DNA of 64,000 nt from a virus (lineage: Duplodnaviria; Heunggongvirae; Uroviricota; Caudoviricetes). Below are positions 1-55,581 of the stretch, in pieces. Positions within the stretch are counted from its first letter, which is position 1. The number at the start of each line of letters is the position of its first letter. The stretch covers positions 1 to 64,000 of the IMG/VR virus record IMGVR_UViG_2579778606_000002; one strand, written 5' to 3'. The position numbers and the translations under genes were made by a program. The notes beneath the pieces are model-generated. The model saw only the letters and a list, made by a program, of their open reading frames with translations. It searched no databases and had not been told where the DNA came from.

Positions 1-699
1 GTTGCTTATATTTTCAAACATCCGGCCGGGAAATTATTCTGGGCTTTAACGGATGAAAGCAATAAAGAGCAAGCGGACGTTATTCCTGTTTATGCTGCCG
101 CGCCTGCGTCGGTTGTGCCGGATAATGCATCAGAGCCTCTTGCTTATGCTTACAAAGAGCTTACGCCTGAGATTATGCGCAACCATTTAGCTGTATTCGA
201 GCGATATGGAATAGCCCCAAACGATAGCTCTACCACAATTCAGGCACTGCGAATCGCGCTGGATGGCATAGAGCGGAGCGACGCCATGCTTCATGGTGCT
301 GAACCTGTAAGCCAAACTTACAAGTTGCCAATTAATACACCTTGCCAAGATGCGCCAGCCCATATCTGGCTGCAAACAGCTGGAGTATGGCCAGAAGATG
401 GCGAGTTAAGCGAATTAACGTGGTGCAGCCACAATCAGCACCATGATGACACACTATATGTTCGAGCTGACCTTGTGAATGGCAACTATCCGGTAACTCC
501 GGATGGTTGGATAAGCTGTAGTGAGCGAATGCCGGATAATAATCACGACGTACTTTTCTTCGATGTGTGGGGTTATATCAGGATTGGCTGGTTCAGTGCG
601 GACGACTGGTCGTGGTTTACGTCGGATGATGGGTGCTGCATGGAGGTGACCCACTGGATGCCGCTACCAGAACCGCCTCAGGAGGTTAACCGTGGCTAA
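1..699 (+). CDS. DUF551-domain phage protein, 5' partial (reading frame is open from window position 1; first Met at 115)
   Basis: Frame 1 has no stop from nt 1 to 699; C-terminal WISCSERMPD...WMPLPEPP resembles DUF551 domain common in enterobacterial prophages. Confidence 0.55.
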   Translation, partial: VAYIFKHPAGKLFWALTDESNKEQADVIPVYAAAPASVVPDNASEPLAYAYKELTPEIMRNHLAVFERYGIAPNDSSTTIQALRIALDGIERSDAMLHGAEPVSQTYKLPINTPCQDAPAHIWLQTAGVWPEDGELSELTWCSHNQHHDDTLYVRADLVNGNYPVTPDGWISCSERMPDNNHDVLFFDVWGYIRIGWFSADDWSWFTSDDGCCMEVTHWMPLPEPPQEVNRG

Positions 700-729
700 C
701 CTGCAACTTATCCTCAAAGGTGAAAAGAT

Positions 730-951
730 TTGAGGATTCGCATCATTAATAACACCGACAAGCATCCGGAAGATTATTTGGATTGCTCGTTAGCAGAGTG
801 TGGTATTTCCGTATGGGATGAGTTCGATGTGATGCGTAAAACCGCTTACGGCTATGTCGTAATTCATAACGGAGAAGAATTATTTGTTCGTCGGTCAGAA
901 TGCGTGGAATTGATAGAAGAGAATCACCGCACATCGGCAACACACAGCTAA
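730..951 (+). CDS. hypothetical small protein (TTG start in ORF track; no ATG nearby)
   Basis: 73-aa ORF with balanced charged composition; the overlapping minus-strand ORF 746..1159 looks like antisense noise. Confidence 0.3.
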   Translation: MRIRIINNTDKHPEDYLDCSLAECGISVWDEFDVMRKTAYGYVVIHNGEELFVRRSECVELIEENHRTSATHS

Positions 952-977
952 ATATGTTCGCAATAAAGGGTAAGTCA

Positions 978-1379
978 ATGGCTAAATTTCGGAGAACTAT
1001 TGTTTTTCTGGCAATGTTATCTGCCTGCCATTTATCACATGCATCGGTTATTGTTGCAACCGCCGCAACAACGGCAGCAATTAGCGCCTCAGCCGCAAGC
1101 GAGCAGGAGCAACGCACTGCAATCAATGCATCCGCAAATACTACCACTGTAGCAGTCACGCAAGATAAGCCAAATATAGGCTTTGTTACTTGCGGAAAAC
1201 GGCATGGAGAGACGGTCGGTTCTCTTGGTTGCGCAGTGTGGCATGACGAACGAGCAGAAATTCCGTGGAAATCATGGACTGGTTACATTCTTGGCGAAAA
1301 GATACCCACCAGCTATGAAGTAAATGCTATTTCGTTCGATCAATATAACAGAGTCGCAACGGTCTACTTTTCTTATTAA
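978..1379 (+). CDS. exported or membrane protein with N-terminal signal peptide (MAKFRRTIVFLAMLSACHLSHA)
   Basis: ATG at 978 with AAGGG 7 nt upstream; hydrophobic signal-like N-terminus followed by Ala/Thr-rich segment. Confidence 0.5.
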   Translation: MAKFRRTIVFLAMLSACHLSHASVIVATAATTAAISASAASEQEQRTAINASANTTTVAVTQDKPNIGFVTCGKRHGETVGSLGCAVWHDERAEIPWKSWTGYILGEKIPTSYEVNAISFDQYNRVATVYFSY

Positions 1380-1391
1380 CACGGAGTGATT

Positions 1392-1685
1392 ATGTGGCGC
1401 GGTAATAATCATGGCAGAAGCCATATGATACTTACCGAATATAAGCTAGACCACAAAACCAATAAATCGCGCTCAGTATATTTGCTCCGGCACAATAGCC
1501 GCGTAAGGAATACCGTGCTGGAGCAAAATCTGACCGTTGAAATGGATAATTTCGGGAATTTCAAGCCAACAATATCGCTTGATGATTTCCCTCGTGGTTT
1601 AAGCGAAAGAGAAGCAATGCTGAAGTTAGCAGAATGGCTACAAAGATTGAGCATTGTTATTGAAGATAACTGGAGTCAACCATAA
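1392..1685 (+). CDS. hypothetical protein
   Basis: ATG at 1392 preceded by GGAG 5 nt upstream; ORF track start 1386 is GTG. Confidence 0.4.
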   Translation: MWRGNNHGRSHMILTEYKLDHKTNKSRSVYLLRHNSRVRNTVLEQNLTVEMDNFGNFKPTISLDDFPRGLSEREAMLKLAEWLQRLSIVIEDNWSQP

Positions 1686-1861
1686 TGAAAAACAGAAAGA
1701 AATTTTGGATTACTTTTTTGTTTGTATGCCTTTGCGGTTTATTTGTTTTATTAGCTGGTGGTGTTAAATGGGGTACGGTGGGGTGTGGTTTTTGGAGTGG
1801 GCTTACTCTTTTCGCAGCTTGGCTTATCGCCAACTTTGAGTCAGGCGGAGGGTATTGGTAA
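1685..1861 (+). CDS. small hydrophobic membrane peptide, 58 aa (MKNRKKFWITFLFVCLCGLFVLLAGGVKWGTVGCGFWSGLTLFAAWLIANFESGGGYW)
   Basis: Below ORF-track size cutoff; ATG overlaps stop of upstream ORF (TAATG), two predicted TM segments. Confidence 0.4.
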   Translation: MKNRKKFWITFLFVCLCGLFVLLAGGVKWGTVGCGFWSGLTLFAAWLIANFESGGGYW

Positions 1862-1881
1862 GTGGTCTTATTCCCCACTTC

Positions 1882-1934
1882 ATAACGGATATCACGCTCG
1901 TGATAACGGATATTCCAATTTTGATAACGGATAA
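1882..1934 (+). promoter_or_regulatory. three direct repeats ATAACGGATA(T/A) with exact 21-bp phasing (starts 1882, 1903, 1924) upstream of CDS 1941..2150
   Basis: Seen directly in sequence; two-helical-turn spacing suggests cooperative binding site array. Confidence 0.4.
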
Positions 1935-1940
1935 AGCCAA

Positions 1941-2150
1941 ATGAGGCATTTTTTAAGGCTGGCATTTGTTCTGGCGCTATTTGCTCCTCCGGCTGCGATG
2001 GCTGGAGAACAGCAGCACTGTGTAACTGAATCAGAGAATCTTGTAATAGTCACTCAATGCGATGACGGAACGGTGACCGTGGTTAATGTACGAGATAACC
2101 GTGTAGCCGTGTGTCGTAAAGGCGAATCATGTAAGGAAATAAAACTATGA
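1941..2150 (+). CDS. small secreted protein (signal peptide MRHFLRLAFVLALFAPPAAMA, Cys-rich mature part)
   Basis: ATG start, signal-peptide-like N-terminus, 4 Cys in mature 48 aa. Confidence 0.45.
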   Translation: MRHFLRLAFVLALFAPPAAMAGEQQHCVTESENLVIVTQCDDGTVTVVNVRDNRVAVCRKGESCKEIKL

Positions 2151-2944
2151 CTAAAATCACTAAATTTCGCATATCAGAGATTATTGCACGCATCGAAATG
2201 TATGGATACGGCGCTGGATACACGGCAGATGAGGTATTGGAGCTTGCCCAAATAGCGTTAGCAACCTGCAAAGACGGTGAGAGTATAAAGCTGATTGACT
2301 TGTTGGTGCTGGAGCTGCCAAAGCGTGGAGGGTGGCCTGATGATGTGCTCGATTGTCGCATGGTTAGAGAGGACTGCTGTGAACCATCATATGGGTTCTT
2401 TGCTTTTGGCTCTGATCCAGCGAAAAGCCCGCGTGGGCGCAATTTTTGCCTTGAGGTCAGGCTTCCGATAAGTAACCTTGATCGCGAGGAATACACGGAA
2501 ATAATTTCGCGCAAACAATACGAAGAGGCTCTTGAAGCATCCAATAAGTTAAATTTTGAGCAATGGCTGGGACAACAACGCGAAAAAATCGACCTGGACT
2601 GCGGTTGTGTGTCTACTGAAACATTCATGCACTGGCTGCGGGTAGCCTATGAATCTGGCAACCGTCTGGATACTCATCCACAAGAGGTGCCGAAGCCAAG
2701 AGTAAGCACAACTCTGGAAAGGAGCTATCTTGAAACTGCATTAAAGATTAAGGCAGGCCATACGCTAGGCGTCATTGATGCCATGTTGGTTCATGAAATG
2801 GCGAAGGCTTTACTACCAGAAATTCCCGCGAATACGCCTACGCAAGTTCTGGCGCTAATGAACAAACACAATCTGCCCAGGGAAGCATTCTGGTGCTTTG
2901 ACCATGAACAGTGGAGATACTCATGCTATGAATGCCGGTATTAA
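2147..2944 (+). CDS. hypothetical phage protein, 265 aa
   Basis: ATG at 2147 with AAGGA upstream; ATGA overlap with preceding gene. Confidence 0.55.
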   Translation: MTKITKFRISEIIARIEMYGYGAGYTADEVLELAQIALATCKDGESIKLIDLLVLELPKRGGWPDDVLDCRMVREDCCEPSYGFFAFGSDPAKSPRGRNFCLEVRLPISNLDREEYTEIISRKQYEEALEASNKLNFEQWLGQQREKIDLDCGCVSTETFMHWLRVAYESGNRLDTHPQEVPKPRVSTTLERSYLETALKIKAGHTLGVIDAMLVHEMAKALLPEIPANTPTQVLALMNKHNLPREAFWCFDHEQWRYSCYECRY

Positions 2945-3000
2945 TGATGACTGGTGAGCTTGTAGTTCTGGCTACCCGCAGCCCCCCTGGTTACTACAAA

Positions 3001-5706: not shown

Positions 5707-6369
5707 TCACTCCACAACAAACCAGTCACAGGCCAGCAGGTCGCCAACTGAAGGCACCCACGGAACAACTACACCTTGTGCATTTTTTAAGGCGAAATAA
5801 GCACCATACGGAACGAGGTCGCCGGGAAAATATCCCTTAATGGCTTCCATTCGTGCCGGGTACTGTCCTTCAGGAACCAGCCAGCAGAATTGGTTTTCGC
5901 CGTTCCACCCACGTCGGGCAACTTTCTTGCCATCCTTCAGCCACATCAGCGCGTCAGAAAAGTCGGCTGCTTCAAGGTCGATTTCTTCTTGTAGAGTAGC
6001 GATACCGCCAGCAGAAATAGTTACGTCCCTGGCTGTAATGAATGTCACCCCATTGTGACCTTCAATGCTGAGCGATACCCCATTTTCGGAGGCGTCGTTA
6101 ACCCGGCTATAGCATTTTTCAAATGCTTTCTCTGGCACATAGACCAGATAGCCATTTTCAGCAGTGACGAGATATCCTCCTATTTGCGGTCGGAATTTTT
6201 CCAAGAACACACCATCAACACGAAGCGTCATTCCTTTTGGCTCAACGACTTCGATACTGCCAAAAATGGGCGCATAAGCTTCGCCGACAATAACAATATC
6301 TTTGATTTTCGATGCCCGAATGATGCTGTGGCTTTTGTATTTGGGGAACACCTGAAAAGTGCTGGCCAT
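5707..6369 (-). CDS. two-domain protein with C-terminal DUF2829 (Tad2-like) domain
   Basis: C-terminal ALMWLKDGKKVARRGWNG...VPWVPSVGDLLACDWFVVE fits the DUF2829 signature (A..LK.GKKVAR.GWNG ... PW..S..DLLA.DW.V). Confidence 0.5.
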   Translation of the reverse strand: MASTFQVFPKYKSHSIIRASKIKDIVIVGEAYAPIFGSIEVVEPKGMTLRVDGVFLEKFRPQIGGYLVTAENGYLVYVPEKAFEKCYSRVNDASENGVSLSIEGHNGVTFITARDVTISAGGIATLQEEIDLEAADFSDALMWLKDGKKVARRGWNGENQFCWLVPEGQYPARMEAIKGYFPGDLVPYGAYFALKNAQGVVVPWVPSVGDLLACDWFVVE

Positions 6370-6383
6370 AATCTTTCCTCTAC

Positions 6384-6878
6384 TTAAAACTTTTCGTACT
6401 GAAGCGGTGTACGCTTGATTTCAATGCGGTCTTCCGATGTGCTACCAAAGCCACCAGCACCTCGCTCTGTTTCATCGAGTTCATCAACTTCTACCAGCGA
6501 TACCGGTTCAACACGCTCAAAAATGCCTTGCATGACCGCCATTCCAGGCTTGAGGCAAACACCTTCACCACCAGGATCTGTAATCAGTTTTGCCATGATT
6601 TCACCGCGATAATCGGAGTCGATAATTCCTACGCAGTTAGCCAGGCGCGTATGCTTTTTGCAGCGCAATCCGGAACGAGGATAGAGTTTCAGACACCAGC
6701 CAGGAGGGATCGCCATAGCGAGGCCGGTATGCACCCACCAGCTTGAGGAAATAGCGCCGTTGCTATCGATACCCGGCGTTATTTCAACAGCAACAAAATC
6801 CATCGCCGCCGATCCGGCGGTGGCGTAAACGGGGAGTTTTGCCGCCGGATGAAGGCGTTTCACTTTCACGTTAATCAT
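6384..6878 (-). CDS. dut: dUTP diphosphatase (dUTPase)
   Basis: Conserved dUTPase motifs PRSGL, GIIDSDYRGEI, RGAGGFGST; overall collinear with E. coli Dut. Confidence 0.75.
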   Translation of the reverse strand: MINVKVKRLHPAAKLPVYATAGSAAMDFVAVEITPGIDSNGAISSSWWVHTGLAMAIPPGWCLKLYPRSGLRCKKHTRLANCVGIIDSDYRGEIMAKLITDPGGEGVCLKPGMAVMQGIFERVEPVSLVEVDELDETERGAGGFGSTSEDRIEIKRTPLQYEKF

Positions 6879-7776: not shown

Positions 7777-8805
7777 TTATGAATCCATCAGGCGACTATT
7801 TGCACCAACGGATGCCCCGCTACGGCGCAAATATCGCATAAGTGTTTCGGGCTTTTTCCATGTGCCTTCCTGCATGATCTCGACCATTGACACCTGTTTC
7901 TCAGCCATATCAATTGCCGCACCAACACGCGCACTATGGCCTGTCCACGTCCGGTATCTTCCCTTGTTCGGCGTGGCATCTCGTTTGTTCAGCAACCCCC
8001 AGGCATCGCTGAATATTTTCTCCATTGCAGGTGCAGTAAGGGGCGTTGTCGTGATTCTGGCCTTATTACTGCGGTGTATTGGCGGGAATAGCACCGCGTC
8101 CGGATGTTCTCGAAGTCCGGACACCTCCAGCCAGTCGTTCAGTACGGCGGTAGTGTAACGAGAAAGCACCTTATCAAGTCCGGCGGCGGTCGTGATGGTC
8201 TTCGTGTGTGAAATATGCAGCGTTACAGTGTCACCTCTTTGGTCCAGATCTCCGACACGGATGCGCGAGATTTCTGACATACGCATCAGGGTATTGTATG
8301 CCACGAAGAGAAACGCCCGATTGCGCAGGTCCACCAGCCGCTCGGAACGGGACAGCAACACGTCGAGCAATTTCAGATCATCCCACCGCAACGGTATAGC
8401 CTGGCCTGTTCGCTCGCCTTTTTCCGTTGCCGCTTCGCGCCGGATGCGCCGCATGGCCAGAGACACACTTTTATCGTCCGACAGCGGCGGGAGGCCACAT
8501 TGCGAAAGCAGCATGTTAAGCATGGCATAGTGCTTATCAATGGTGGTCGAAGCCAGATCGGCCTCATGCAACTGGAGAAGATACTCGCGGGCCATTTCCG
8601 GCGTAATCGGGAACCAGGGGCGCTGGCGCGAGTTACACCACCGCGCCCAGGAATGAAACACCAGACGGAGATCACGAAGTGTATTTGGGGCATAAGCTCC
8701 CTGGTCGTTCATGAACTGCATAAAGTTTTTTGCAGCTTCCTGGTATTCGGTGCCAATATCGCGCAGAAAACCACCAGAACCGCCGGAGATAACTAGTTCA
8801 CCCAT
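7777..8805 (-). CDS. dre: Cre-family tyrosine site-specific recombinase (Dre-like)
   Basis: 342 aa; collinear with Cre (…WFP..PE..R.YLL.L....LA..TI..H...LNML...SGLP.PSD...VSL.MRRIR…HSARVGAA.DMA…) and near-identical to what I recall of D6 Dre; cognate rox site 150 bp upstream. Confidence 0.85.
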   Translation of the reverse strand: MGELVISGGSGGFLRDIGTEYQEAAKNFMQFMNDQGAYAPNTLRDLRLVFHSWARWCNSRQRPWFPITPEMAREYLLQLHEADLASTTIDKHYAMLNMLLSQCGLPPLSDDKSVSLAMRRIRREAATEKGERTGQAIPLRWDDLKLLDVLLSRSERLVDLRNRAFLFVAYNTLMRMSEISRIRVGDLDQRGDTVTLHISHTKTITTAAGLDKVLSRYTTAVLNDWLEVSGLREHPDAVLFPPIHRSNKARITTTPLTAPAMEKIFSDAWGLLNKRDATPNKGRYRTWTGHSARVGAAIDMAEKQVSMVEIMQEGTWKKPETLMRYLRRSGASVGANSRLMDS

Positions 8806-8957
8806 GAAACTATTAAACCTCTATATACAGATAACGCTACGTGAAAAATAGAAAACTGACAGGGTAGTTATAAGTTAATTTTCAAAATTCAAGCCTTTGA
8901 TTCGAGGCATGATTTTTCATCCTTGTCAATACTGCCTGTTTACTGGAGATTATAGCC

Positions 8958-8989
8958 TAACTTTAAATAATGCCAATTATTTAAAGTTA
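8958..8989. other. rox: rox-type recombination site: 14-bp inverted arms TAACTTTAAATAAT / ATTATTTAAAGTTA around a GCCA spacer
   Basis: Read directly; identical to the 32-bp rox site I recall for Dre; lox-like architecture upstream of the recombinase gene. Confidence 0.8.
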
Positions 8990-9186: not shown

Positions 9187-10224
9187 ATGAGTAAGAAGTC
9201 GATCGAGAATGAGTACAAACGGTTCCTGCAAACCGCTGAACGGTGGAAAGAGCTGGTGGTCGCAAACTCTGTTTTCCATGATACCAGTTACGTTGGCGAG
9301 GAATTTCGCCATGTTGCATTAACACATGATCCGGCTGTATTAGAAGAAGCTGAAAAATGCATAGCCGAATGGAAAGCCTTTGTTGATCTGTGTCGCAAGG
9401 ATGATGACAAAGCCTCAAACATTGTTGAGTCGGTTTATTTACCGATCCCATTCATTGTTGAGGATACTAATCAGAGTACGCATATCGTTATGCAAAGCGC
9501 AACCACAACGAGAACATTTACGCGCGAAGACCTGCTGAAAAAATACGATAAAACTATAAAGAAAAGCATGAAAAACAGGATCTTTTCACAGGTTGTCGGT
9601 GCGCTTGAAGAAGAACGCAGATTCTTCGCCGCAGAACGTGAGGGCGAGGTATACCGCGCAAGAAAAGAAGGTTATACCGATGTGGTGATTACCACCAATA
9701 TCGAGGGCAACAATGGACTTTCACGCTTCAGAGTGGGTACGCACGGTGCGCTGATCTTTGCAAAAAAAGCAAACACAGAGATTCCCGTTGTTAACAACGT
9801 TGGTGAGCGCCGCACCCTTACCATTTACACTGGCATTAAACCGCTTCCGTGCGGACTTCTCGGCGAATTTGACCTTTATCGGGTTCGTGACCTGGAAAAG
9901 CAGCAGCCAAGCTATGTCGTGAAGTCATATATCCTGAGAAACATTGATATCCGCAATCAGAGTTTAAAAAACAAATCAGAGAAAATGCTGTCCGAAGCCG
10001 ATCCAGCCATACACCAGATCGTTAGCCGGAAAATTCAAGAAGCTAAAGATGCAATGGCAAGGCTGGATAAAATGGACCTGGAACTACTGGAAGTTATGAT
10101 TGCCTCCGGCGATGACCTGACAGGCATCCGCCTTACTGAAGCCAGGAAAAAATACGGTAAAAGCGTTGAAGAACGCTATGGGTACACATTCACACAAACG
10201 ATGTACGCGGCAAAACTCTGGTAA
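9187..10224 (+). CDS. hypothetical 345-aa protein, AT-rich gene adjacent to rox; possible repressor-position or accessory gene
   Basis: ATG at 9187 with AGGAA upstream (ORF track start 9124 is TTG); lower GC than flanks; flanked upstream by two operator-like motifs. Confidence 0.45.
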   Translation: MSKKSIENEYKRFLQTAERWKELVVANSVFHDTSYVGEEFRHVALTHDPAVLEEAEKCIAEWKAFVDLCRKDDDKASNIVESVYLPIPFIVEDTNQSTHIVMQSATTTRTFTREDLLKKYDKTIKKSMKNRIFSQVVGALEEERRFFAAEREGEVYRARKEGYTDVVITTNIEGNNGLSRFRVGTHGALIFAKKANTEIPVVNNVGERRTLTIYTGIKPLPCGLLGEFDLYRVRDLEKQQPSYVVKSYILRNIDIRNQSLKNKSEKMLSEADPAIHQIVSRKIQEAKDAMARLDKMDLELLEVMIASGDDLTGIRLTEARKKYGKSVEERYGYTFTQTMYAAKLW

Positions 10225-10261: not shown

Positions 10262-11770
10262 TTAAATGTCAATATCAGGAATATCCACTTCTGCCAACAC
10301 CTGATCGCGGAATGTTGCTAGTTCTGCGCCAATGTCTTCATTAGCAGGCACGTAATCCACCAGCATAGTGAAGCAGTAGGTATCCCATCTGTCCGGCGAC
10401 TTGATGTTTAACTTCTGCCGCATGTGCTCCTTGCGCATCATCGCCACCTTCCCTTCTTCGTTAAGCATATACGGGATTTTTGATGCCTGATCGGCAGTTT
10501 TGGGGTCACTATCGATACGCATACGCCCTGATTTAATGGCATCCCCTGCCATAATATTGGCGTAAGCACGCTGATTGACAAAGCGTTCTCTGTCTCTTAG
10601 CGCAAACATAGGTTTACCCCAACGGATGCGAACGGGATTAGCACCACGGCGGACAAGCTGCGCACACGTATCTGAACCAAAGCCATCAGCATCCACAGCA
10701 ATGGTGATGTTCGGGTATTTATCAGGAGTGCATTCGTTATAGATAAAGTCGGCAAAAGCCAACGGGTCCATAGTGCCTGGCATCTCCAGTATCTTAAAGT
10801 TCACAACACGTCGTTTCTCACGATAACCGGATACTTTGCATATATTGAGCACCGATTTGTCGCGACCATTACCGACGTCAGCGGTCGCTACCCAGCCCCA
10901 ATCTTTCTCCAGCAACACTTTACGCCGTGCGGCGCGGTCGCACTCATCACGACCAAGCAAATACCCGTTAATTGCACGCGGGAACTGGCCCAGCACCTTA
11001 ACCATGTACTCCAGCGAATCCCTGCCGCCGTACTCCAGCAATTTCTCACGAATAAAGCTCGGTTCAACGAATGGAGATTCTTCAGAGTTAAGGACTATTG
11101 CCGTCCAGACTCCTTCCGGATTGCCTTCTGCCTTTGCCCTTGAATGGTGGGATTCATAAAAGTAACCGCTTGGACGCGTAGGCTGGGAAAGCATGAGCAT
11201 ACGGTTATCTTTCTGCGTTAACGCCCCCGTCATGACGTTAATCGCCTTATCTGATATGCCCGATGCTTCATCAAGGATTAGCAGTAAATGCTCCGCGTGC
11301 TCCCCCGCCAGTGCCTCTTCGTTACCGAGTCGATAACCTTTACAGAGCACTTCCCATATCCCTTTACGGGAACGCTCATAAAACATGGTGTCAGACAGGA
11401 CAAAATAGGTCTGTAACCAGCCGTGGCGCTTAACAGCATTCGCCCAAAACTGTTTCACGTATTTGAATACGCCTGTTTTTACCTGGCCTATTTTGTTCGC
11501 AACAATAATGACGCGGGCGTCGGGGAACAGGATCATAAAAATTAGTAGCAACATCGCGGTAAGGGACGACTTACCCGTTCCGTGTCCGGACGTAACGGTC
11601 GTCCTGCTCCCCGTCTCCTGCACTGACTGAATGATCTGCTGCTGCTGGTGGGAGGGGAACATCCCAAAAATATCGACAACCGCCTGGGTAAAGTTGTATC
11701 GATACCTGATAACCATATCGCGCCAACGTGGATCACTGGTGACGCACTTAATCTTACGACCACCAGCCAT
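10262..11770 (-). CDS. pacB: terminase large subunit (PacB-like)
   Basis: 502 aa, Walker A GHGTGKS, nuclease-like C-terminal half; immediately downstream of pacA-like gene as in P1. Confidence 0.75.
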   Translation of the reverse strand: MAGGRKIKCVTSDPRWRDMVIRYRYNFTQAVVDIFGMFPSHQQQQIIQSVQETGSRTTVTSGHGTGKSSLTAMLLLIFMILFPDARVIIVANKIGQVKTGVFKYVKQFWANAVKRHGWLQTYFVLSDTMFYERSRKGIWEVLCKGYRLGNEEALAGEHAEHLLLILDEASGISDKAINVMTGALTQKDNRMLMLSQPTRPSGYFYESHHSRAKAEGNPEGVWTAIVLNSEESPFVEPSFIREKLLEYGGRDSLEYMVKVLGQFPRAINGYLLGRDECDRAARRKVLLEKDWGWVATADVGNGRDKSVLNICKVSGYREKRRVVNFKILEMPGTMDPLAFADFIYNECTPDKYPNITIAVDADGFGSDTCAQLVRRGANPVRIRWGKPMFALRDRERFVNQRAYANIMAGDAIKSGRMRIDSDPKTADQASKIPYMLNEEGKVAMMRKEHMRQKLNIKSPDRWDTYCFTMLVDYVPANEDIGAELATFRDQVLAEVDIPDIDI

Positions 11771-13134
11771 TAGTCATCCTCCGGCTGGTCTATCGCAATC
11801 TCGTCATCTACAGCATCAAAACCGGTATCCCCCGCGTCATAATCACCGTAGATATCAGCCGTGGCGGAAGGGTCTATATTCAGGTCTTCATCATTGGCCT
11901 CAAATTCACCGGCTTTACGTTCTCCGTTCCGGTCGTAATCCCCCATCCCAAGCCTATCAACGATTTTCGCTACTTCAGCCCGGCGTTGTGCAAGCCATTG
12001 TGGGAGTCCAGCTTGTTGCTCGGCAAACTGCTTCGCCTCTTTATCCAGTTGCTCATCATCAACATCGTTAACGTCAGAAACCGGAGGCTCCAGAAGTGAG
12101 ATCGCTTTTGCCGCTCGTGCCGCCAGGATAGCCGGGACACTGACGCCCTGCCGCTCGATATATTCAGCAACGCCTATATCGTCCAGCTCCTCGCGCTCAC
12201 GCATACGTATAGCGGCGGCGATAACTCTGGCGGCGCGTGCGTCAGCGCCAATGCGATACTCAATCTCTTTGCCACGCTGCTCGGCTTGCAGGCGAGTAAT
12301 CGCCAGTTTTTCTCTGGCCTCAGCCTCTCTGAATGCCTGCTGGCGCGCGCCCTGCGCAAGTTTTTCATCCCCCTGGCGTAGCTTCTGCTCGGTCTGGTAG
12401 ATGGCAGCCAACCTACTGATAAAGTCATTCATGTAGTAGGCCGCATCGCTTATTAGGCCGAGAAGACGCTGCCCTGGGTGCATTCCCTCTGGCTGTGTAT
12501 CGCCGAGGGCGTCAATCTCTTCCTGTAGTCGTTCCGCTTCCTGGTCAACGATGGCCTGATACTGAATTGCTCGTTCCTGCGCCATCTGTATCGCAAGTCG
12601 TAAATGTTCAGTCGCGCCGTTCTTCATCATCTCACGGGCGACGTTGGTGGCAGGCAAAGTGGCGCTTTGAGCTGATGAGTCAGGGATCATTTGCAATGAT
12701 CCCTTGTTTCGTTGGGCTTTTTCGCTGCTTTTAGGGATCATTTCCCCCATTTCATCACAAAATGATCCCCTTACATCCTTGTGTATCTTATTGTTATTAC
12801 TTGGCTTTTCTTTGTGATCCGCATTTTGTTTTTGCGGCATGGCGCGGAATCGTCCACCAGCTAACGATTTGTCAGTTTTTGTAAATTCTGTGCTTTTATC
12901 AGCCTTTTTTTGCTCTTTTTTTGGGCTTGTGGCGCTACTTTTTGCGCGCTGTTTTGTACTTTTCCCGGCAGCCTTAGCTTTCGCTTTAACCTCGTTTTTT
13001 TTCATATTGAGATGCTTTCTGGCGGTGTTAAAGCTGAGGTCATGCTGCTCGCAATATTCTTTTATGGTGATCCCGGTTTCTTCTCTTAACTCCAGGAACT
13101 TAGCTCGATGCGCTTCCCAGTTAATTAACGTCAT
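11770..13134 (-). CDS. pacA: terminase small subunit / pac-recognition protein (PacA-like)
   Basis: 454 aa, N-terminal HTH-like region, Lys-rich linker, acidic C-terminus; contains GATC-rich pac-like cluster near 5' end. Confidence 0.6.
   Translation of the reverse strand: MTLINWEAHRAKFLELREETGITIKEYCEQHDLSFNTARKHLNMKKNEVKAKAKAAGKSTKQRAKSSATSPKKEQKKADKSTEFTKTDKSLAGGRFRAMPQKQNADHKEKPSNNNKIHKDVRGSFCDEMGEMIPKSSEKAQRNKGSLQMIPDSSAQSATLPATNVAREMMKNGATEHLRLAIQMAQERAIQYQAIVDQEAERLQEEIDALGDTQPEGMHPGQRLLGLISDAAYYMNDFISRLAAIYQTEQKLRQGDEKLAQGARQQAFREAEAREKLAITRLQAEQRGKEIEYRIGADARAARVIAAAIRMREREELDDIGVAEYIERQGVSVPAILAARAAKAISLLEPPVSDVNDVDDEQLDKEAKQFAEQQAGLPQWLAQRRAEVAKIVDRLGMGDYDRNGERKAGEFEANDEDLNIDPSATADIYGDYDAGDTGFDAVDDEIAIDQPEDD
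12685..12829. other. pac: candidate pac site: five GATC-containing hexamer elements (TGATC[C/A]) within 145 bp inside 5' part of pacA
   Basis: GATC at 12685, 12698, 12736, 12764, 12826 embedded in repeated GGGATCA / TGATCC elements; P1 pac is a Dam-methylated hexamer cluster inside pacA. Confidence 0.45.
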
Positions 13135-15040: not shown

Positions 15041-15117
15041 TGGTGGCCCCTACCGGACTTGAACCGGTGACCGTGCGATTATGAGTCGCCCGCTCTAACC
15101 ACTGAGCTAAAGGGCCA
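15041..15117 (-). tRNA. tRNA-Ile2-like (anticodon CAU; could be read as Met without lysidine modification)
   Basis: Reverse complement GGCCCTTTAGCTCAGTGGTTAGAGCGGGCGACTCATAATCGCACGGTCACCGGTTCAAGTCCGGTAGGGGCCACCA folds as cloverleaf; anticodon arm GGCGACTCATAATCGC like E. coli ileX. Confidence 0.7.
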
Positions 15118-15544
15118 GATTACTGTTAATTACGCTTACGCTTTTTGCCAGAACCGCGTAAGGCTTTTGCCGCTTGCTCTACCCCGTATGCAACCACCAG
15201 CAGAAACAATAATGTCCACTCCGGGTTTTTATCGGCAAACGCCCAAAAATCCATCACTTGCAGCCACCTTTTAAGACAAACGCCATTGCTGTTAGGTTGC
15301 GGTGCCGGGTGCCTCCCGGTGACGTTAACCAGTTAACAATTAACGCCGGATCACTTATGGATTCTCGTTACGCCAGTAAAAAGACCACCTTTACTGTTTT
15401 AACTGTTCCGCGTGCGCTTAGCCGCATTCACCGCAATGGTAAGAGCATTTGGCTGACTGGGCGGCGATGACGCCTGTACGCATTTGGTGATCCGGTTCTG
15501 CTTCCGGCATTCGCTTAATTAGCCAAATACTCTTAACGTTGCGA

Positions 15545-15631
15545 TGGCGGAGAGTAATGGAATCGAACCATCATCGCTTGGGCGACGGGACGGTTTTCAA
15601 GACCGCTTGAGCACCATGCTCCCTACTCTCC
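15545..15631 (-). tRNA. class II tRNA, probable tRNA-Ser (anticodon UGA); D-arm atypical
   Basis: 7-bp acceptor GGAGAGT/ACTCTCC, discriminator G, CCA, anticodon loop CTTGAAA, long variable arm, T-loop TTCGATT. Confidence 0.45.
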
Positions 15632-15872
15632 AGTGATTGTGGTGGTCGGTGCTGATCTCCGACTGCGCCTCTTTTTTTCATAGCCCATAAGGCCGGTCAG
15701 TGCGCTTGATGACTGAGGCATCGATATTTACTACGCCGCCTCGTTGCCATAGGGCGGACTTGCGCGCCAGCAACGCGCATTCACCACAACGGTAAGGGTA
15801 CTTCGTAGGGATTCGAACCCTCTGCCAAGCACGGCGATCTCCGACGTCGCAAAATACCCTTACCTGTTGTGT

Positions 15873-15948
15873 TGGTGCCGGTTAACGGACTCGAACCGCT
15901 GACATCCTGCTTACAAGGCAGGCGCTCTACCAACTGAGCTAAACCGGC
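15873..15948 (-). tRNA. tRNA-Thr (anticodon UGU)
   Basis: GCCGGTTTAGCTCAGTTGGTAGAGCGCCTGCCTTGTAAGCAGGATGTCAGCGGTTCGAGTCCGTTAACCGGCACCA; canonical cloverleaf. Confidence 0.8.
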
Positions 15949-15952
15949 AATT

Positions 15953-16039
15953 TGGTGGGGAGTGATGGAGTCGAACCATCCGAGTCGCAATGACAGTAGA
16001 TTTACAGTCTACCCCGCTACCCCTACGGACTAACTCCCC
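15953..16039 (-). tRNA. class II tRNA, probable tRNA-Tyr (anticodon GUA)
   Basis: Acceptor GGGGAGT/ACTCCCC, anticodon arm GTAGACTGTAAATCTAC and variable arm similar to E. coli tRNA-Tyr; D-arm imperfect. Confidence 0.55.
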
Positions 16040-16044
16040 TAAAT

Positions 16045-16121
16045 TGGCGATGGTGGGTGGATTCGAACCACCGACCGACAGCTTAGAAGGCTGCTGCTCT
16101 ATCCTACTGAGCTACACCATC
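16045..16121 (-). tRNA. tRNA-Arg (anticodon UCU, reads AGA)
   Basis: GATGGTGTAGCTCAGTAGGATAGAGCAGCAGCCTTCTAAGCTGTCGGTCGGTGGTTCGAATCCACCCACCATCGCCA; canonical cloverleaf. Confidence 0.75.
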
Positions 16122-27527: not shown

Positions 27528-27623
27528 AACCGTTAAATCCGCCTTAAGCGGTACGGTTTGAGAGGGTATGGAGTGTGTTAATTTCGCAGAATCACACCCC
27601 GAAGGTTCTTACTCAAAAGGGGA

Positions 27624-28121
27624 TCATGGTTGAACCTGGATAACATCACCGTTCTTAACGGTAATGATTTTGTTCAGAAGAACGATTTGCGGGAAATGTC
27701 CAGCATACCAACTGAACGAACCAATCACTTCATACTGGCCTGGTGGTACGTTTTCGAACTCAAATTTGCCTTGAGCATCAGTCAGGACAGTTCTGTCATA
27801 TTCCGCAACCCTGCCGTCGATTATTTCTAAGGTCTGAGTGTCGTAATCAATTTTGGGGGTATTTTTGATATATGAAGTATACGGACGCAGTATGATATTG
27901 GAGCCAGCACCAATCTTCACATCCCCTCCGCGAGTTACTCCAAATAATTCCCCCTTAACCTTACCTGTGCCTTTTTTCGGCAATGCCTGATATTCCTCTA
28001 CAGGGAATGCTGGGCGTTTAACAAACTGTTTTACTTGCTGAGGCTTGTTGTATGTCTGAACCGGAGCGCATCCTGATAATGCAAATGCACAAACAATAGT
28101 CGCTAATATTGCTTTTTTCAT
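27624..28121 (-). CDS. lipoprotein with carboxypeptidase-regulatory-like (transthyretin-fold) domain
   Basis: Start ATG at 28121 (MKKAILATIVCAFALSGC lipobox); TDAQGKFEFENVPPGQYEV motif. Confidence 0.55.
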   Translation of the reverse strand: MKKAILATIVCAFALSGCAPVQTYNKPQQVKQFVKRPAFPVEEYQALPKKGTGKVKGELFGVTRGGDVKIGAGSNIILRPYTSYIKNTPKIDYDTQTLEIIDGRVAEYDRTVLTDAQGKFEFENVPPGQYEVIGSFSWYAGHFPQIVLLNKIITVKNGDVIQVQP

Positions 28122-28314
28122 AACTTTCTCTTTTCTCAAATAAATAACGCAAACCAATAATAACCAGTGTTATCATTAACTTAGCGCAACTTAACTTTTC
28201 TGTTAGATAATACATTGAATAAAGTTAAAGATGAATGCCGTTTAATAATGTTTGGTGTAATAGAAATCACATTCTCAACATAGTTATTGCTCTTTTTTCA
28301 TTCGGAGCATGATT

Positions 28315-28800
28315 ATGATCAATAATGAACCTCGCTGGCTTATTGAAGCCCGTAAAAATATTGGAGTCACCGAAATAAAAGGAGCGAAACACAATCCTGA
28401 GATCGTCCAGTTCTGGCGGGATATTAAGCGCGGTGGAATTAAAGACGATGAAACGCCGTGGTGCGCAGCATTTGTCGGTGCAATGCTGGAACGTGTAGGC
28501 ATCCGCTCAACAAGATTTGAGTCGGCAAAATCCTATCTGGATTGGGGCGAGAAATTAGATACACCGGCATACGGATGTATCGTTGTATTTACTCGCGCAG
28601 GCGGTGGGCATGTAGGCTTTGTTGTCGGACGCCGCGCCAATGGCGATCTGCTTGTCTTGGGTGGGAACCAGGGGGATGCTGTTAATATTCGCGCATTCCC
28701 AACATCAAGAGTGTCTGGCTATCGCTGGCCTGCTGGCGAACCACGCAATACAGCTCTGTTACCTGTCGGCGACGCAGCAACCTCAACTAATGAGGCATGA
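28315..28800 (+). CDS. TIGR02594-family / CHAP-like putative peptidoglycan hydrolase
   Basis: Conserved Cys (PWCAAFVG) and His (GGGHVGFVVG) catalytic-pair pattern; GGAG 7 nt upstream of ATG 28315. Confidence 0.55.
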   Translation: MINNEPRWLIEARKNIGVTEIKGAKHNPEIVQFWRDIKRGGIKDDETPWCAAFVGAMLERVGIRSTRFESAKSYLDWGEKLDTPAYGCIVVFTRAGGGHVGFVVGRRANGDLLVLGGNQGDAVNIRAFPTSRVSGYRWPAGEPRNTALLPVGDAATSTNEA

Positions 28801-29960: not shown

Positions 29961-30019
29961 AGTTACGGCCTCACTAACAGGTTTAACAACCTGCTACCCG
30001 CTGCTAAACAGGTGGCAGG

Positions 30020-30110
30020 ACGTGACGGGGTTAGCAGACTGGCGTTAGTGAAACCAGCAGGCCGAAGCCTCCCCATCACGCCCCACCATAATTTGGGCGT
30101 AACGCGGTTT
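30020..30110 (-). ncRNA. c4: candidate C4-like antisense RNA (contains a'/b' elements CACTAAC … CTGCTAAC complementary to two flanking target pairs)
   Basis: Minus-strand RNA would carry CACTAAC and CTGCTAAC (30030..30050) complementary to GTTAGTG / GTTTAGCAG copies at 30156..30183 and 29972..30013 (the latter just upstream of icd RBS); boundaries approximate. Confidence 0.4.
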
Positions 30111-30290
30111 TACGGACACAAAAATACCGCAATATCGGATATCTGCGGTTGTCCGCACTAACATTCAGGCTGCTAAACCCGGTCGCAGAATTTGCTACGA
30201 CGGCATGAATATAAGCCTGAACATTAGAAAGATCAACAGAATTTTTATCAGATGCTGTTTTTTAGTGACGATATAAATCATACATTCTTG

Positions 30291-34236: not shown

Positions 34237-34419
34237 GAGTCACCGCGAAATGTTTTCAGTTTGCGGCAGCATAGTCAGTATGTGATTTTTGATGATGGAT
34301 CTTTTCAACTAGAAATATTGGCTGGCCCCTCTCGTAACAAAGTGAAGAATAAAACTTGAATATGCACATTGTGCGTATTAAGATTAAAAAAGTTGACCAC
34401 TTTGCTGCGGAGAAATTCC

Positions 34420-34722
34420 ATGAAAAGCTCTTTAATTAACTCCAAATTACACCAACTTGCTATCAAAAATCGAGTTCCTGCATGGTCGGTTTACATGCAT
34501 ATCAGCCACGCATGTCTGAGCAATGAAAACATTTACAATCTGCAAATTCTAAGCCGGGAAGGCAGGACTTTGTTTAGCGTTGCAGAGGATTCCTATAAGG
34601 CCTGGGATATGCTGGATGACGCGTTAAGCCAATACGCGCAAACAGAAGAATGCCAAAAAGAATGGGCCAGGTACTGTGATGAAGGGATGCCATGCTGCGG
34701 TCTGTTCGGCGCAGCTCTGTGA
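34420..34722 (+). CDS. hypothetical 100-aa protein upstream of HTH gene (candidate toxin partner)
   Basis: ATG at 34420 with GGAG 7 nt upstream (ORF track start 34369 is TTG). Confidence 0.4.
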   Translation: MKSSLINSKLHQLAIKNRVPAWSVYMHISHACLSNENIYNLQILSREGRTLFSVAEDSYKAWDMLDDALSQYAQTEECQKEWARYCDEGMPCCGLFGAAL

Positions 34723-34734
34723 ATCGATTCAACG

Positions 34735-34998
34735 ATGATATACTTCGTTGCGAATCACAGCATTGGCAAAGGGCATATTGTGAAACAACTCCCACCAAAC
34801 ACCCCGGAAACCATAATTGAAATCCGCCAGCGAATGGGGCTAACGCAAACGGAGTTAGCCCACAAAATGGGGTATCAACTCCGGGCTTGGCAATTCAAAG
34901 AAGATAGAAATAAACCGAGACGCCTTATGGCTGGTGAATTTGAGTACCTGTTATTGCTTGCTGGAGAGCATCCTGAATTTATTCTTACACCACGCTAA
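34735..34998 (+). CDS. XRE-family HTH DNA-binding protein, 87 aa
   Basis: HTH motif MGLTQTELAHKMG; small size typical of antitoxin/regulator. Confidence 0.5.
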   Translation: MIYFVANHSIGKGHIVKQLPPNTPETIIEIRQRMGLTQTELAHKMGYQLRAWQFKEDRNKPRRLMAGEFEYLLLLAGEHPEFILTPR

Positions 34999-35032
34999 AA
35001 AAACCCGCCTGACGGCGGGATTATCAATCATA

Positions 35033-35326
35033 TCAATTCACATCAATGTCTTGATATGATTCGCCAGTATCGTCTTCGTCGTCAGGATCTCCTTCCACCT
35101 CTGGCCACTCAACCTCCCAGCCAACAGTTTCCAGGCTCCGCAGAACAAACACCCCATCGGCATGAATGGTATTCACGATCCCCATTGCGGAATTTGTGTT
35201 GATAAAGCGTAAATCTTGCGCAATATTTTCTTCCGAAATATCGCCTTCAAATATACGCAATGTGCCGTCATCAGAGCATTCAACAATCCCTCTAATCCCA
35301 GCGGGACTCACAATGCTATACTTCAT
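35033..35326 (-). CDS. hypothetical acidic protein, 97 aa
   Basis: Last gene of Dar-like operon; acidic C-terminus. Confidence 0.4.
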   Translation of the reverse strand: MKYSIVSPAGIRGIVECSDDGTLRIFEGDISEENIAQDLRFINTNSAMGIVNTIHADGVFVLRSLETVGWEVEWPEVEGDPDDEDDTGESYQDIDVN

Positions 35327-38300
35327 TTTGCAACTCCTTCATACATCCCAAGAAAAATTCCAGCACGCCGTCATTGTTTAATACAGAGTTAGTCGCCTGC
35401 TCAGGATCGGCATACATCTGCAAGGCCATAGAAAAAATCTCAGTCGCCCTGCAATTGCTTAATGCAGGTGGCTTTGATATAAATCTGCCGCTGACAGAAC
35501 TTACCGTATTTTCCATATAAATTTTAGACATATATCCATGACTTAGGTCGGTTCGCACCAAATACTCAGCACTGCCACGGCTACCAATATTATGATAAAA
35601 AACTTTACCGTTAGTTTTTGATTTAATGAAGGCTTTGGCCCTCTCCAATAGATGGGGATTTGAATGTTCTATATGGTGACCTATTTCATGCCATAATACA
35701 CGCTCGTGATCACTATTAGCATCAATTGTTATATTCCCATTTCGACTTGCAAAAGCACGAACATTGTTCTTGTGGTTAATATTTTTTAATGTAGATAAAG
35801 TCCCTCCTGAAATAATATAGGCTTTTTCAATTGTCTCGCGAATACTGTATGCTTTACGGGAGAAAGTTTCATTATCGTGACCACTTAACTGCTCTGCTTC
35901 ATCAGAAATAGCAATCCCACGACTCCATTCCTTAGACTGGTCATGTGACACATTTGACGATTCAAGAATCATGTCAAATGCGGCTCTGACTTTTTTATGT
36001 ACTACATTTTCAAGCGCATTAGGATAGGCTTTTTGTCCACGTGTTAATGAAGCTATTTCATATAATTCTGCTTGCAAGTCTTCCGGTATGTCCAGATTAA
36101 AAACAAGCATTTTTTTCAGTTCATATCCAATCCCATGATCATTCTGGTGCAAAACCTCAGCAAGGTAGTCAGTGAGTTTTTCCTTATTTGACCTAACTTT
36201 ATTGATTTGTTCTATAGTAAAGTCAACGCGCTCCTTGATTCCGTAATATGAGGAATGCTCTGCTAATTCCACTATCTCCTTAAGCCTGACAAGTGTCTCA
36301 ATATACGCATCAGCGATCTCCTCTGCCGTTAGTTCGGAGCTAACTCCGACGCTGGCTGTTATTTCCCTACCAGCCGCCATAATATCGTTGATATTATGCA
36401 AGCTCTTTTTGAATAACTTCAAAGTATTTTGGATTATGCGCACCATCTCTTCTGCGCTTCCAGCTTTATTCATTTCCTTTCTAAATCTTAAAGCTGTTTT
36501 CTCTGCAATAGACGCTGGAGATTTTAAATAGTTACCTAACCAAACAAGACAACCATTGCGCAATTCATCAATGCTAAAGTCATCAGGAATATGTTTTGCT
36601 GCATTATGTAAAACACGTATAAATTGTTCAGCGGGCACGCCTTCTTCTGACATATTGCAAAACGTTTCAATGTCACAATCAATATTTCTTTCATCTGCGA
36701 GTGAAGGAGCTTCATCTCCTTTTTCAATCGCGTCACGCAGTGCGTTAGCATAAAAATTGCTGCGTTGATAAGACAATAACATCGTTGTTAACACAGCGTT
36801 GCTGTATCCATAACGTTTAGCCCACGCCTTAATCTCATTAACGGTGACATTGCGAATATAAAAACCAAGTTCCAAAAATACATTGCGCTTTATTTTTTTT
36901 GCGGACTCCTTAATTTTTTCTGACGCCTTCACGATTCGGATCAAGTCCTCCACGCTGGTCGCATCAGCAATTAGCTTTGAAATGTATGGTTCGACATCTC
37001 CCGAAACCGATTCGAACATGGCGAAATTAAGCCCTTTACCTTCGCCATACTCAGCCTCAATTTCATCAGAAACGGCAGATAAAATGCTACGCAGATCGAC
37101 ATCTCCGCCGCCGAACATATCGCCTAACGCTTGTTGCTGGTGAATAAGTTCATCGTTAATTTTTTGCGCCAGTTTCTTGAAAGCTGCCCCCATTCGCTTA
37201 GCGCTTCGGTTGTTGGCAACAATAAACAGAGCAAGCGCTTCTGCTTCCGGAGTGCTATCTCCAAACAATCCACGCTGTGCGATCACCTCTTCTACTGCCT
37301 GACCGTTATCTTTTGCTTCACGAACAAGGTTAATTGCTTCCTGTAGCGCGGCAATAGCCTGTTTATCCAGACCATTCAATTGCTCTATACCGTCTACCAG
37401 TCCGGTTACCGTGTCATGGTGAACATCACCTGAAAGCGACTGCATTTGCGCAAAATCGCTGGCTGCCGTATTTAATGCGGTAAGGATGTTACGCATTTCC
37501 GGATCTGGCTCTTCCGCCACCAACCGAACAAGCCTTTCATCCTTGTACGCTTTGGCAAAAATTGCATTCTGGATGCGGTCGATAAGTTGTTTCGTTGGAC
37601 GCCCATCGGCTGTAAGCAAACCTGCCGTCGCCGTATCACCTATTTCGCGCAAAAACGCACGAATAAACGCATCATTGGACCGCGCCAGTAGATTCCCATC
37701 ATCTGAAGGATTAAATAGCGCCATGACGCTCTCAGTGAGAAATTGCGCATCCGCATACGCTTTTTCACTTGCAGCCATCTCTTGCAGATCGCTGATGTTT
37801 GAATCGCGGGCGAACTGCGCACGATCAACATCAGTGAGTCTTTCGCGCACCAATACGGGCATAGACATTTGTGAAATGTCGTCAGGATTCAGACCAAACT
37901 CTTTTGCATGATCGATCAGGTACTGGCGATATTCATCCGCCTGCCCTTGCTCATAGGCACGCCAGATACCCATGCTCCTTCCGTTGCCGGATTCAACAAC
38001 GTTGTCCGGACCAACTATCGGCGCTCCGTGGCTGCTCATGCCGGAATCCGTTAATTGTGCCGGGCGTAAATTGGAGGCAATACGGTTAACCTGGAGTTTG
38101 CTGGATAGCCGTGTACGGTCACGTGGCTGGAGTTCTTCCGGGAAGGCCGGATTAATCGTACCGTCAAGGTTGTTCGAAATGATCAGACTGCTGGCATCAA
38201 CGACCTTAAAAGCCGTCTTTACCTCTGCCCCTTTACTGGTGACTACGTAACTACTGCGCCCCTGGCGTGTTTCTCGCCTCTCTAATGAAGAAACCAGCGC

Positions 38301-38357
38301 AATAACACTGTTAATGTCTGCTGCTTCGGATAGCGCGGAAGTAACTGACTTGTTCAA
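35316..38357 (-). CDS. ddrB: large Dar-cluster protein (DdrB-like) with C-terminal HExxH zinc-metallopeptidase motif
   Basis: 1013 aa; LWHEIGHHIEH about 124 aa from C-terminus (nt approx 35672..35695); position after darA/ddrA-like genes. Confidence 0.5.
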   Translation of the reverse strand: MNKSVTSALSEAADINSVIALVSSLERRETRQGRSSYVVTSKGAEVKTAFKVVDASSLIISNNLDGTINPAFPEELQPRDRTRLSSKLQVNRIASNLRPAQLTDSGMSSHGAPIVGPDNVVESGNGRSMGIWRAYEQGQADEYRQYLIDHAKEFGLNPDDISQMSMPVLVRERLTDVDRAQFARDSNISDLQEMAASEKAYADAQFLTESVMALFNPSDDGNLLARSNDAFIRAFLREIGDTATAGLLTADGRPTKQLIDRIQNAIFAKAYKDERLVRLVAEEPDPEMRNILTALNTAASDFAQMQSLSGDVHHDTVTGLVDGIEQLNGLDKQAIAALQEAINLVREAKDNGQAVEEVIAQRGLFGDSTPEAEALALFIVANNRSAKRMGAAFKKLAQKINDELIHQQQALGDMFGGGDVDLRSILSAVSDEIEAEYGEGKGLNFAMFESVSGDVEPYISKLIADATSVEDLIRIVKASEKIKESAKKIKRNVFLELGFYIRNVTVNEIKAWAKRYGYSNAVLTTMLLSYQRSNFYANALRDAIEKGDEAPSLADERNIDCDIETFCNMSEEGVPAEQFIRVLHNAAKHIPDDFSIDELRNGCLVWLGNYLKSPASIAEKTALRFRKEMNKAGSAEEMVRIIQNTLKLFKKSLHNINDIMAAGREITASVGVSSELTAEEIADAYIETLVRLKEIVELAEHSSYYGIKERVDFTIEQINKVRSNKEKLTDYLAEVLHQNDHGIGYELKKMLVFNLDIPEDLQAELYEIASLTRGQKAYPNALENVVHKKVRAAFDMILESSNVSHDQSKEWSRGIAISDEAEQLSGHDNETFSRKAYSIRETIEKAYIISGGTLSTLKNINHKNNVRAFASRNGNITIDANSDHERVLWHEIGHHIEHSNPHLLERAKAFIKSKTNGKVFYHNIGSRGSAEYLVRTDLSHGYMSKIYMENTVSSVSGRFISKPPALSNCRATEIFSMALQMYADPEQATNSVLNNDGVLEFFLGCMKELQNEV

Positions 38358-42202: not shown

Positions 42203-42421
42203 ATGCATATGATGGCCCGGTGGTCCGTAAACCTCGTCACTCAGAGCGTGGAGGATGCCAAATTCGCGTATCAACAAAATGGTCCAAACACGGCTTTAAA
42301 GAGAAATACGCTTGAATGCGCAAGATGTGAGCTGATTCTTGAGGACAAAATGATGACATGTGAGTCTTCACAAGCGTCATTCAGTGAATATAATGCCCCC
42401 CTCTCAGATACCACTAACTGA
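42203..42421 (+). CDS. small plus-strand ORF (72 aa) with its own terminator, embedded between minus-strand operons
   Basis: Followed by strong terminator at 42434..42466; alternative frame ORF 42133..42315 also possible. Confidence 0.3.
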   Translation: MHMMARWSVNLVTQSVEDAKFAYQQNGPNTALKRNTLECARCELILEDKMMTCESSQASFSEYNAPLSDTTN

Positions 42422-42580: not shown

Positions 42581-43003
42581 TTATACAGGCATCTCAGGCC
42601 ATGAGATATCTGCATCAACAGAAGTGTCAACTCTATTAAGAAGAACTCTATACCTCTTTAACTTTGTCAACATTTCTATTTCCTCATCAGTGGCAATATC
42701 CATATCAACAGCATCCTGAAGCGTTGATATTTTTATGCTCACATCATTCATAAGACTACTTTTGGTGTTTTCAGCAATGCTGACTCTATCCTCTAAGCTC
42801 ATAGGTTGTGGGTCAGATAACATTGGATAACCATCGCCATTTGCAATTATTATTTTCCCATTGCCATACCCTGATAACAATTCATCATATAAGTCATCAG
42901 GTATATGTACAGTATCGGACGGCCATGAACCGTTTTTATCGTAATCTTCTTTTAGTCTGTCGTCGTAGAAACCACCAGTCTCTTTGCTGTAATACTTTGC
43001 CAT
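42581..43003 (-). CDS. tail fibre assembly protein (Tfa family; P1 gene U-like)
   Basis: C-terminal SLM…LQDAVDMDIATDEEIEMLTKLKRYRVLLNRVDTSVDADISWPEMPV matches lambda Tfa / P2 G family. Confidence 0.8.
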   Translation of the reverse strand: MAKYYSKETGGFYDDRLKEDYDKNGSWPSDTVHIPDDLYDELLSGYGNGKIIIANGDGYPMLSDPQPMSLEDRVSIAENTKSSLMNDVSIKISTLQDAVDMDIATDEEIEMLTKLKRYRVLLNRVDTSVDADISWPEMPV

Positions 43004-43034
43004 TTAAGCACCTTCATTCTAATTAACTATATTT

Positions 43035-54343: not shown

Positions 54344-54394
54344 TGCGGTAATTGTTCAACGTCACTAACTGGCTGGTAGCCGTATAACGTCAGG

Positions 54395-55345: not shown

Positions 55346-55360
55346 AGAAGATCCCGGATC
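55305..55360. repeat. five GATC-containing heptamer repeats (AGATCCA/AGATCCC/GGATCGC), Dam-methylation cluster of replication origin
   Basis: GATC at 55305, 55318, 55339, 55350, 55357. Confidence 0.6.
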
Positions 55361-55397
55361 GCTGCGAGCCGCGCCATCACTGGCCTAAATGGCGATC

Positions 55398-55502: not shown

Positions 55503-55581
55503 ATTCTCTCAGCCGTCAGACGGCTGTGGATAAGTATCTTTCATTTGGCTATAAAGCCCCGTCAATCAAGGAAATAACAGG

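Follow-up and report, generated by a model that had tools for sequence, protein, structure and literature searches.

A 32-bp recombination site and the adjacent recombinase gene in the 64-kb stretch of viral DNA analyzed here (the window) very probably constitute a functional orthologue of the Dre/rox system, carried by a P1-like Escherichia phage-plasmid of the D6 group and presumably having roles similar to those of Cre/lox in phage P1. We take the module to be functional in view of an exact site that occurs only once, a recombinase with 94% identity to Dre, the retained catalytic and selectivity residues, the shared gene order and the purifying selection on the gene. On the basis of current results, every defining feature of Dre/rox that can be examined in sequence is present. 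The Dre/rox system of Escherichia phage D6 was described previously (Sauer and McDermott, 2004, as cited in PMC4777119 and PMC4957104; GenBank AY753669 and MF356679), and the initial annotation of the window was right to regard the module as already known: rox is exact, the protein is a close match to Dre, and public databases already contain the allele (99.7-99.8% identity), labelled only as 'tyrosine-type recombinase/integrase'. The module is real, and the understanding of the system is unchanged by it. Its main value is that of an annotation anchor, by which the window can be assigned to the D6 group and the immC/pac region oriented. The natural variation of rox and Dre and a possible overlap of promoter and operator are mildly new (minor mechanistic interest).

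The positions of all features are listed in Table 1. The site at 8958-8989 reads TAACTTTAAATAATGCCAATTATTTAAAGTTA. Its arm TAACTTTAAATAAT was found without mismatch at 8958-8971 (plus strand) and at 8976-8989 (minus strand). The arms are exact reverse complements around GCCA, which makes the site a perfect inverted repeat of the 14-4-14 type. When both strands were searched with up to three mismatches, this was the single match in the window, and none of 100 dinucleotide-preserving shuffles contained a match. All 32 positions are identical to the rox annotated in the D6 immC region record AY753669 ('region of crossover (rox) site for Dre recombinase') and to the published wild-type roxP, which a study of rox-variant engineering (PMC4777119) gave as 5'-TAACTTTAAATAATGCCAATTATTTAAAGTTA-3', its inverted repeats being 14 bp and its asymmetric spacer 4 bp long. 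In a three-way alignment of the window, D6 and the closest plasmid, all 32 rox positions and 10 bases on the left were identical; the intergenic DNA flanking rox on both sides has diverged. The palindromic site reported in the initial annotation is present exactly as described there, and no difference from the published rox, which had been named as evidence against the assignment, could be observed. The annotation had also placed it 150 bp upstream of a Cre homolog; the distance between the site and the start codon of dre is 152 bp, the same as in D6.

Table 1. Features of the 64-kb window discussed in the text
Feature	Position	Strand	Remarks
rox	8958-8989		arm TAACTTTAAATAAT 8958-8971; asymmetric spacer GCCA 8972-8975; arm ATTATTTAAAGTTA 8976-8989
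dre orthologue	7777-8805	minus	Cre-family tyrosine recombinase, 342 aa, ATG start
Shine-Dalgarno-like AGAGG	8818-8822	minus	precedes dre ATG; kept in 22 of 23 aligned loci, differs in the divergent L084
Conserved block in dre leader	~8835-8876		~42 bp, ACGCTACGTGAAAAATAGAAAACTGACAGGGTAGTTATAAGT
Sigma-70 promoter-like site toward dre	8949-8976	minus	-35 TTGGCA 8976-8971; 16-nt spacer; -10 TATAAT 8954-8949
c1 prophage repressor homologue	9187-10224	plus	reads away from rox; 80% identical over 345 aa to D6 C1
pacB (large terminase subunit) homologue	10262-11770	minus	colinear with D6 pacB
pacA (small terminase subunit) homologue	11770-13134	minus	colinear with D6 pacA
GATC sites in pacA	~12735-12815		three sites in ~80 bp
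dUTPase gene	6384-6878	minus	downstream of dre; Pfam dUTPase E = 3.7e-13; position as D6 dut
Tad2-like protein gene	5707-6369	minus	220 aa; C-terminal Tad2-like domain, E = 1.6e-22
DUF551 protein gene	115-699		in a segment absent from D6
tRNA genes	15041-16121	minus	Met-CAT, Ser-TGA, Thr-TGT, Tyr-GTA, Arg-TCT
Small protein gene	27624-28157		in a segment absent from D6
C4 antisense RNA and a1/b1 targets	30008-30093 and 30162-30214	minus	P1-type immI; Rfam, both above gathering score
ddrB-like gene	35316-38357		1013 aa
cin remnant	42278-42349		24 aa
Tail-fibre assembly gene	42581-43003	minus	
Tail-fibre gene	43035-47255	minus	1406 aa
Rep3-type plasmid initiator	55582-56466		region different from that of D6

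The recombinase is identical to Dre at 321 of 342 residues without gaps; for Cre, the identity is about 41%. Among PDB structures, it matched Cre chains over residues 22-341 (E = 1.6e-71), and Pfam matches to Phage_int_SAM_1 (a SAM-like N-terminal domain) and to the Phage_integrase catalytic domain indicated a two-domain architecture. The catalytic residues of Dre were reported to be R175, H290, R293, W316 and Y325 (PMC4777119); all of them, as well as K202, are retained in the window protein. It was also reported by Karimova et al. that K43, R259 and G263 of Cre (R, P and K in Dre and Panto) contribute to the selectivity between rox/pox and loxP (PMC4957104), and the corresponding residues R44, P259 and K263 are all present. 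Among the 21 substitutions relative to Dre, 15 fall in residues 1-102 and none at a catalytic or selectivity position. At the DNA level, dre is 87.0% identical to the D6 gene, and the codon differences comprise 104 synonymous and 21 non-synonymous changes, which argues for purifying selection on dre. Thus, the match of both site and protein to D6 Dre/rox, proposed in the initial annotation, is borne out (32 of 32 positions and 94% of residues, respectively), and the protein does not fall below the identity of about 90% under which that annotation would have been doubted.

Dre is known to recombine rox efficiently and to be heterospecific with Cre/loxP (PMC4777119, PMC4957104). From the similarity of its sequence, we infer that the 94% variant in the window would also be active on rox. 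In such a reaction, two recombinase monomers would occupy the two 14-bp arms of each rox, and two rox sites would synapse to form a tetramer. Tyr325 would then cleave the DNA to give a 3'-phosphotyrosine intermediate, strand exchange would proceed via a Holliday junction within the central region, and the asymmetric GCCA spacer would set the direction of the site. The P1 record annotates cre as 'cyclization recombinase'. By analogy with P1 Cre/lox, the module may have two roles. First, incoming linear DNA, terminally redundant as a product of headful (pac) packaging, would be closed into a circle; second, dimers of the low-copy plasmid prophage would be resolved before partition, which would leave every daughter cell with a copy.

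It could be argued that the recombinase has drifted in specificity or become inactive, and that rox, though intact, is now a relic or serves another protein. We consider this very unlikely. Such a drift could be suspected from the 21 amino acid differences, one of which (V270G) lies near the end of the equivalent of the DNA-contacting helix J (Cre R270); however, synonymous changes outnumber non-synonymous ones by 5:1, and the catalytic and known specificity residues are all kept. In addition, several plasmids and viral contigs, independent of one another, combine this protein variant with canonical rox, and a recombinase of a mere 70% identity keeps the same arms. With regard to use of the site by another protein, a tblastn search with D6 Cin as the sole query gave only a 24-aa remnant of cin. 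A functional Dre/rox orthologue is thus the reading that we retain.

Further investigation of the natural variation of the system was based on an alignment of 23 distinct D6-like intergenic regions. Of these, one each came from the window and D6, five from plasmid records and 16 from distinct IMG/VR sequences collected by the arm pattern. The rox arms were fixed across the 23 loci except for one recurrent right-arm variant, ATTATCTAAAGTTA, and the flanking intergenic DNA diverged. This variant was found at L102 (1748-1779) and at L103 and L104 (1760-1791 in both), which are plasmids with recombinases 98.8-100% identical to Dre. Two spacer variants were also observed: CCCC in L091 (12405-12436), with a recombinase 99.4% identical to Dre, and GCTA in L084 (3706-3737), where the arms are kept and the recombinase, at only 70% identity to Dre, retains R44, P259 and K263. 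The window-type protein (99.4-99.7% identical) occurred with canonical rox in three further loci. A scan of species-representative genomes with the recombinase found no Dre orthologue and revealed only Panto-like relatives of 42-48% identity in Pantoea, Erwinia, Rahnella and Mixta. Taken together, there is a natural series of Dre proteins (94%, 88% and 70% identical), all keeping the rox arms, as well as site variants in one arm position and two spacers. Such variants could inform the engineering of Dre/rox orthogonality.

The order of genes around the module, pacA-pacB-c1-rox-dre-orf-orf-dut, is the same in the window and D6 and mirrors the order pacB-c1-lox-cre of P1. The assignment of c1 is based on D6 C1; its match to NCBIfam phage_rep_C1 was weak and below the cutoff. 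A P1-type cluster of TGATCA/G pac hexamers was searched for in pacA and was absent, so that the P1 rule does not identify the pac of this lineage; pacA contains just three closely spaced GATC sites. On the other side of rox, three genes downstream of dre, lies the gene for a protein with a C-terminal domain similar to Tad2 (Thoeris anti-defence 2, DUF2829). The D6 homologue at this place is shorter.

We also examined which replicons carry the dre-rox region. The closest relatives of the window are plasmids of E. coli and E. marmotae, about 90-95 kb in size and annotated as circular. Seven of these are present in PLSDB (NZ_CP085065, NZ_LR890273, NZ_CP104667, NZ_CP069647, NZ_AP027414, NZ_CP056699 and NZ_CP099353), with an identity to the window of 97.9-99.4% in the dre-rox region and 96.6-98.9% over the portions covered. 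No close plasmid spans the whole window, and the group is therefore mosaic. In PLSDB, the recombinase was found at an identity of at least 99% in 7 records, at 90-95% in 100, at 80-90% in 85 and at 60-80% in 2, so that Dre-type recombinases of at least 80% identity are present in 192 plasmids. The dre-rox region was present in 155 of 5,426 complete E. coli genomes, in which 158 matching places were identified (153 on plasmids and 5 on chromosomes). The five chromosomal matches could be integrated copies or assembly joins. The plasmid and phage genes of the window include a Rep3-type initiator, phd/doc, pacA, pacB, a ddrB-like gene and tail-fibre genes. Together, the Rep3 initiator, the terminase genes, the C4 antisense RNA and phd/doc support a plasmid-prophage lifestyle.

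The possibility that the module is mainly an integrase/attP pair for chromosomal insertion, and not a system for plasmid maintenance, appears highly improbable in this light: the 5 chromosomal places among 158 are in its favor, but the other 153 are on plasmids of about 90-95 kb, the window has a Rep3 plasmid initiator, its closest relatives are annotated as circular plasmids, and the site is of the symmetric lox type rather than an attP with arm-type sites. Maintenance of a phage-plasmid by a Dre/rox orthologue agrees better with these data.

With regard to the identity of the element, the whole window was compared with the complete D6 genome (MF356679) by BLASTN. Colinear blocks amounted to 49,771 of 64,000 bases (78%), with a mean identity of 83.6%, and were spread over 3.0-64 kb of the window; ten segments of at least 200 bp had no counterpart in D6. 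In the phage collection, D6 was the only match to the dre-rox region (86-87% identity) and the only colinear phage. The window shows the gene order of the D6 group (pacAB, c1, a lox-type site with its recombinase, the immI C4 RNA, darB, head and tail genes, and the plasmid replication initiator). On the other hand, the window falls short of the roughly 95% identity and near-complete colinearity that would make it the same virus or species as D6. It has been reported that D6 belongs to a subgroup of phage-plasmids, 'P1 subgroup 2' (P1g2), which is typified by D6 and NZ_CP066033 (Pfeifer and Rocha, 2024; PMC10879196). Judged from gene order and alignment, the window is a member of this D6 group of P1-like phage-plasmids and is not D6. 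Accordingly worded, only one half of the earlier proposal that the element is probably phage D6 or a close relative stands: it is a relative at the level of the group, whereas D6 itself does not fit (78% aligned at 83.6% identity, C1 80%, and the dre region 87% in DNA). That the window is D6 itself and could be read straight from the D6 annotation was rejected on the whole-window BLASTN comparison and can practically be dismissed: D6 is the sole colinear phage in the phage collection and its rox is identical, but just 49.8 of 64 kb align, with the ten unmatched segments and the divergence of dre and C1 noted above, the tRNA set differs, only 24 aa are left of the cin module, and the seven PLSDB plasmids are far closer than D6 both in the dre-rox region and elsewhere where they cover the window.

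Several observations were made on the parts of the window that differ from D6. Segments without a BLASTN counterpart include 1-3000, 27586-28325, 34289-37023 and 51103-57025. They hold a DUF551 protein, a small protein with a weak, below-cutoff match to CarboxypepD_reg, most of a longer ddrB-like gene, and the Rep3 initiator region. The remnant of the Cin invertase gene was detected by tblastn with D6 Cin, and the invertible tail-fibre segment of the D6/P1 type is absent at 42581-47255; a single tail-fibre gene and a tail-fibre assembly gene are found in its place. Five tRNA genes were found in the window, all on the minus strand, and the matching D6 locus has Met, Ser, Thr and Asn-GTT according to ARAGORN; the tRNA sets are therefore different. 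The D6 record annotates its own tRNAs on the plus strand.

Comparison with known systems places the module closest to D6 Dre/rox, with which it shares the 32-bp site, its orientation and its distance to the gene, the length of the protein (342 aa), and the catalytic and specificity residues. Its neighbors are likewise those of D6: c1, pacB and pacA on one side, and dut with two small ORFs on the opposite side. However, the interval between rox and c1 is 16 bp shorter in the window and otherwise heavily diverged, and the carrier element belongs to another lineage (78% of the window aligned, at 83.6% identity). Similar to P1 Cre/loxP, the module consists of a Cre-type tyrosine recombinase and an inverted-repeat site with an asymmetric center, which has the c1 immunity region on one side and the recombinase gene on the other, next to pacAB, and the presumed roles are the same. 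In contrast with P1, the layout is 14-4-14 instead of 13-8-13, the distance between site and gene is 152 bp instead of about 420 bp, and cra, coi and imcAB are lacking between the site and its neighbors. Panto/pox of Pantoea sp. aB is also a Cre-family system; pox differs from rox at one arm position, and Panto/pox cross-recombines rox (Karimova et al., 2016; PMC4957104), whereas its sequence is far more distant and it is found on large Pantoea/Erwiniaceae replicons and not on P1-like phage-plasmids. Within P1g2, the window is colinear with D6, and NZ_CP066033 was among its weaker plasmid matches; however, it belongs to a sub-lineage whose recombinase, at 99% identity or more, is limited to seven of the 192 PLSDB plasmids with a Dre-type recombinase at 80% or above.

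Finally, a sigma-70 promoter-like site directed toward dre was found to overlap rox. A consensus scan showed agreement at 11 of 12 positions; the -35 TTGGCA lies inside rox (spacer and right arm), and the -10 TATAAT is 3 bp beyond the left arm. Two sites of this quality were found in the window versus about 1.0 expected by chance. The match is therefore not significant alone, and it carries weight only because of its position and conservation. The six -10 columns were invariant in all 23 D6-like loci, the divergent L084 included, and the three bases between the -10 and rox, as well as the DNA beyond the -10, varied. The invariant -10 at rox suggests autoregulation of dre: since the putative promoter overlaps rox, Dre bound at rox could repress its own promoter. 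It should be noted that in P1, the annotated cre promoters are located outside lox (in P4cre, 14 bp separate the end of the -10 from lox), and no promoter is annotated within lox, unlike the candidate in rox. A literature search for a promoter in rox, whose scope did not extend to the original D6 papers, returned nothing relevant. We tentatively propose, while holding it somewhat doubtful, that rox may be both a crossover site and an operator at which bound Dre represses dre. If true, the spacer variants GCTA and CCCC would alter both recombination compatibility and promoter strength. RNA folding of the putative dre leader (8800-8942, minus strand) gave a z-score of +1.05, with no sign of structure. 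The leader also contains the block ACGCTACGTGAAAAATAGAAAACTGACAGGGTAGTTATAAGT, which is conserved across D6-like loci, including the locus with the 70%-identical recombinase, and could be a binding site for a regulator.
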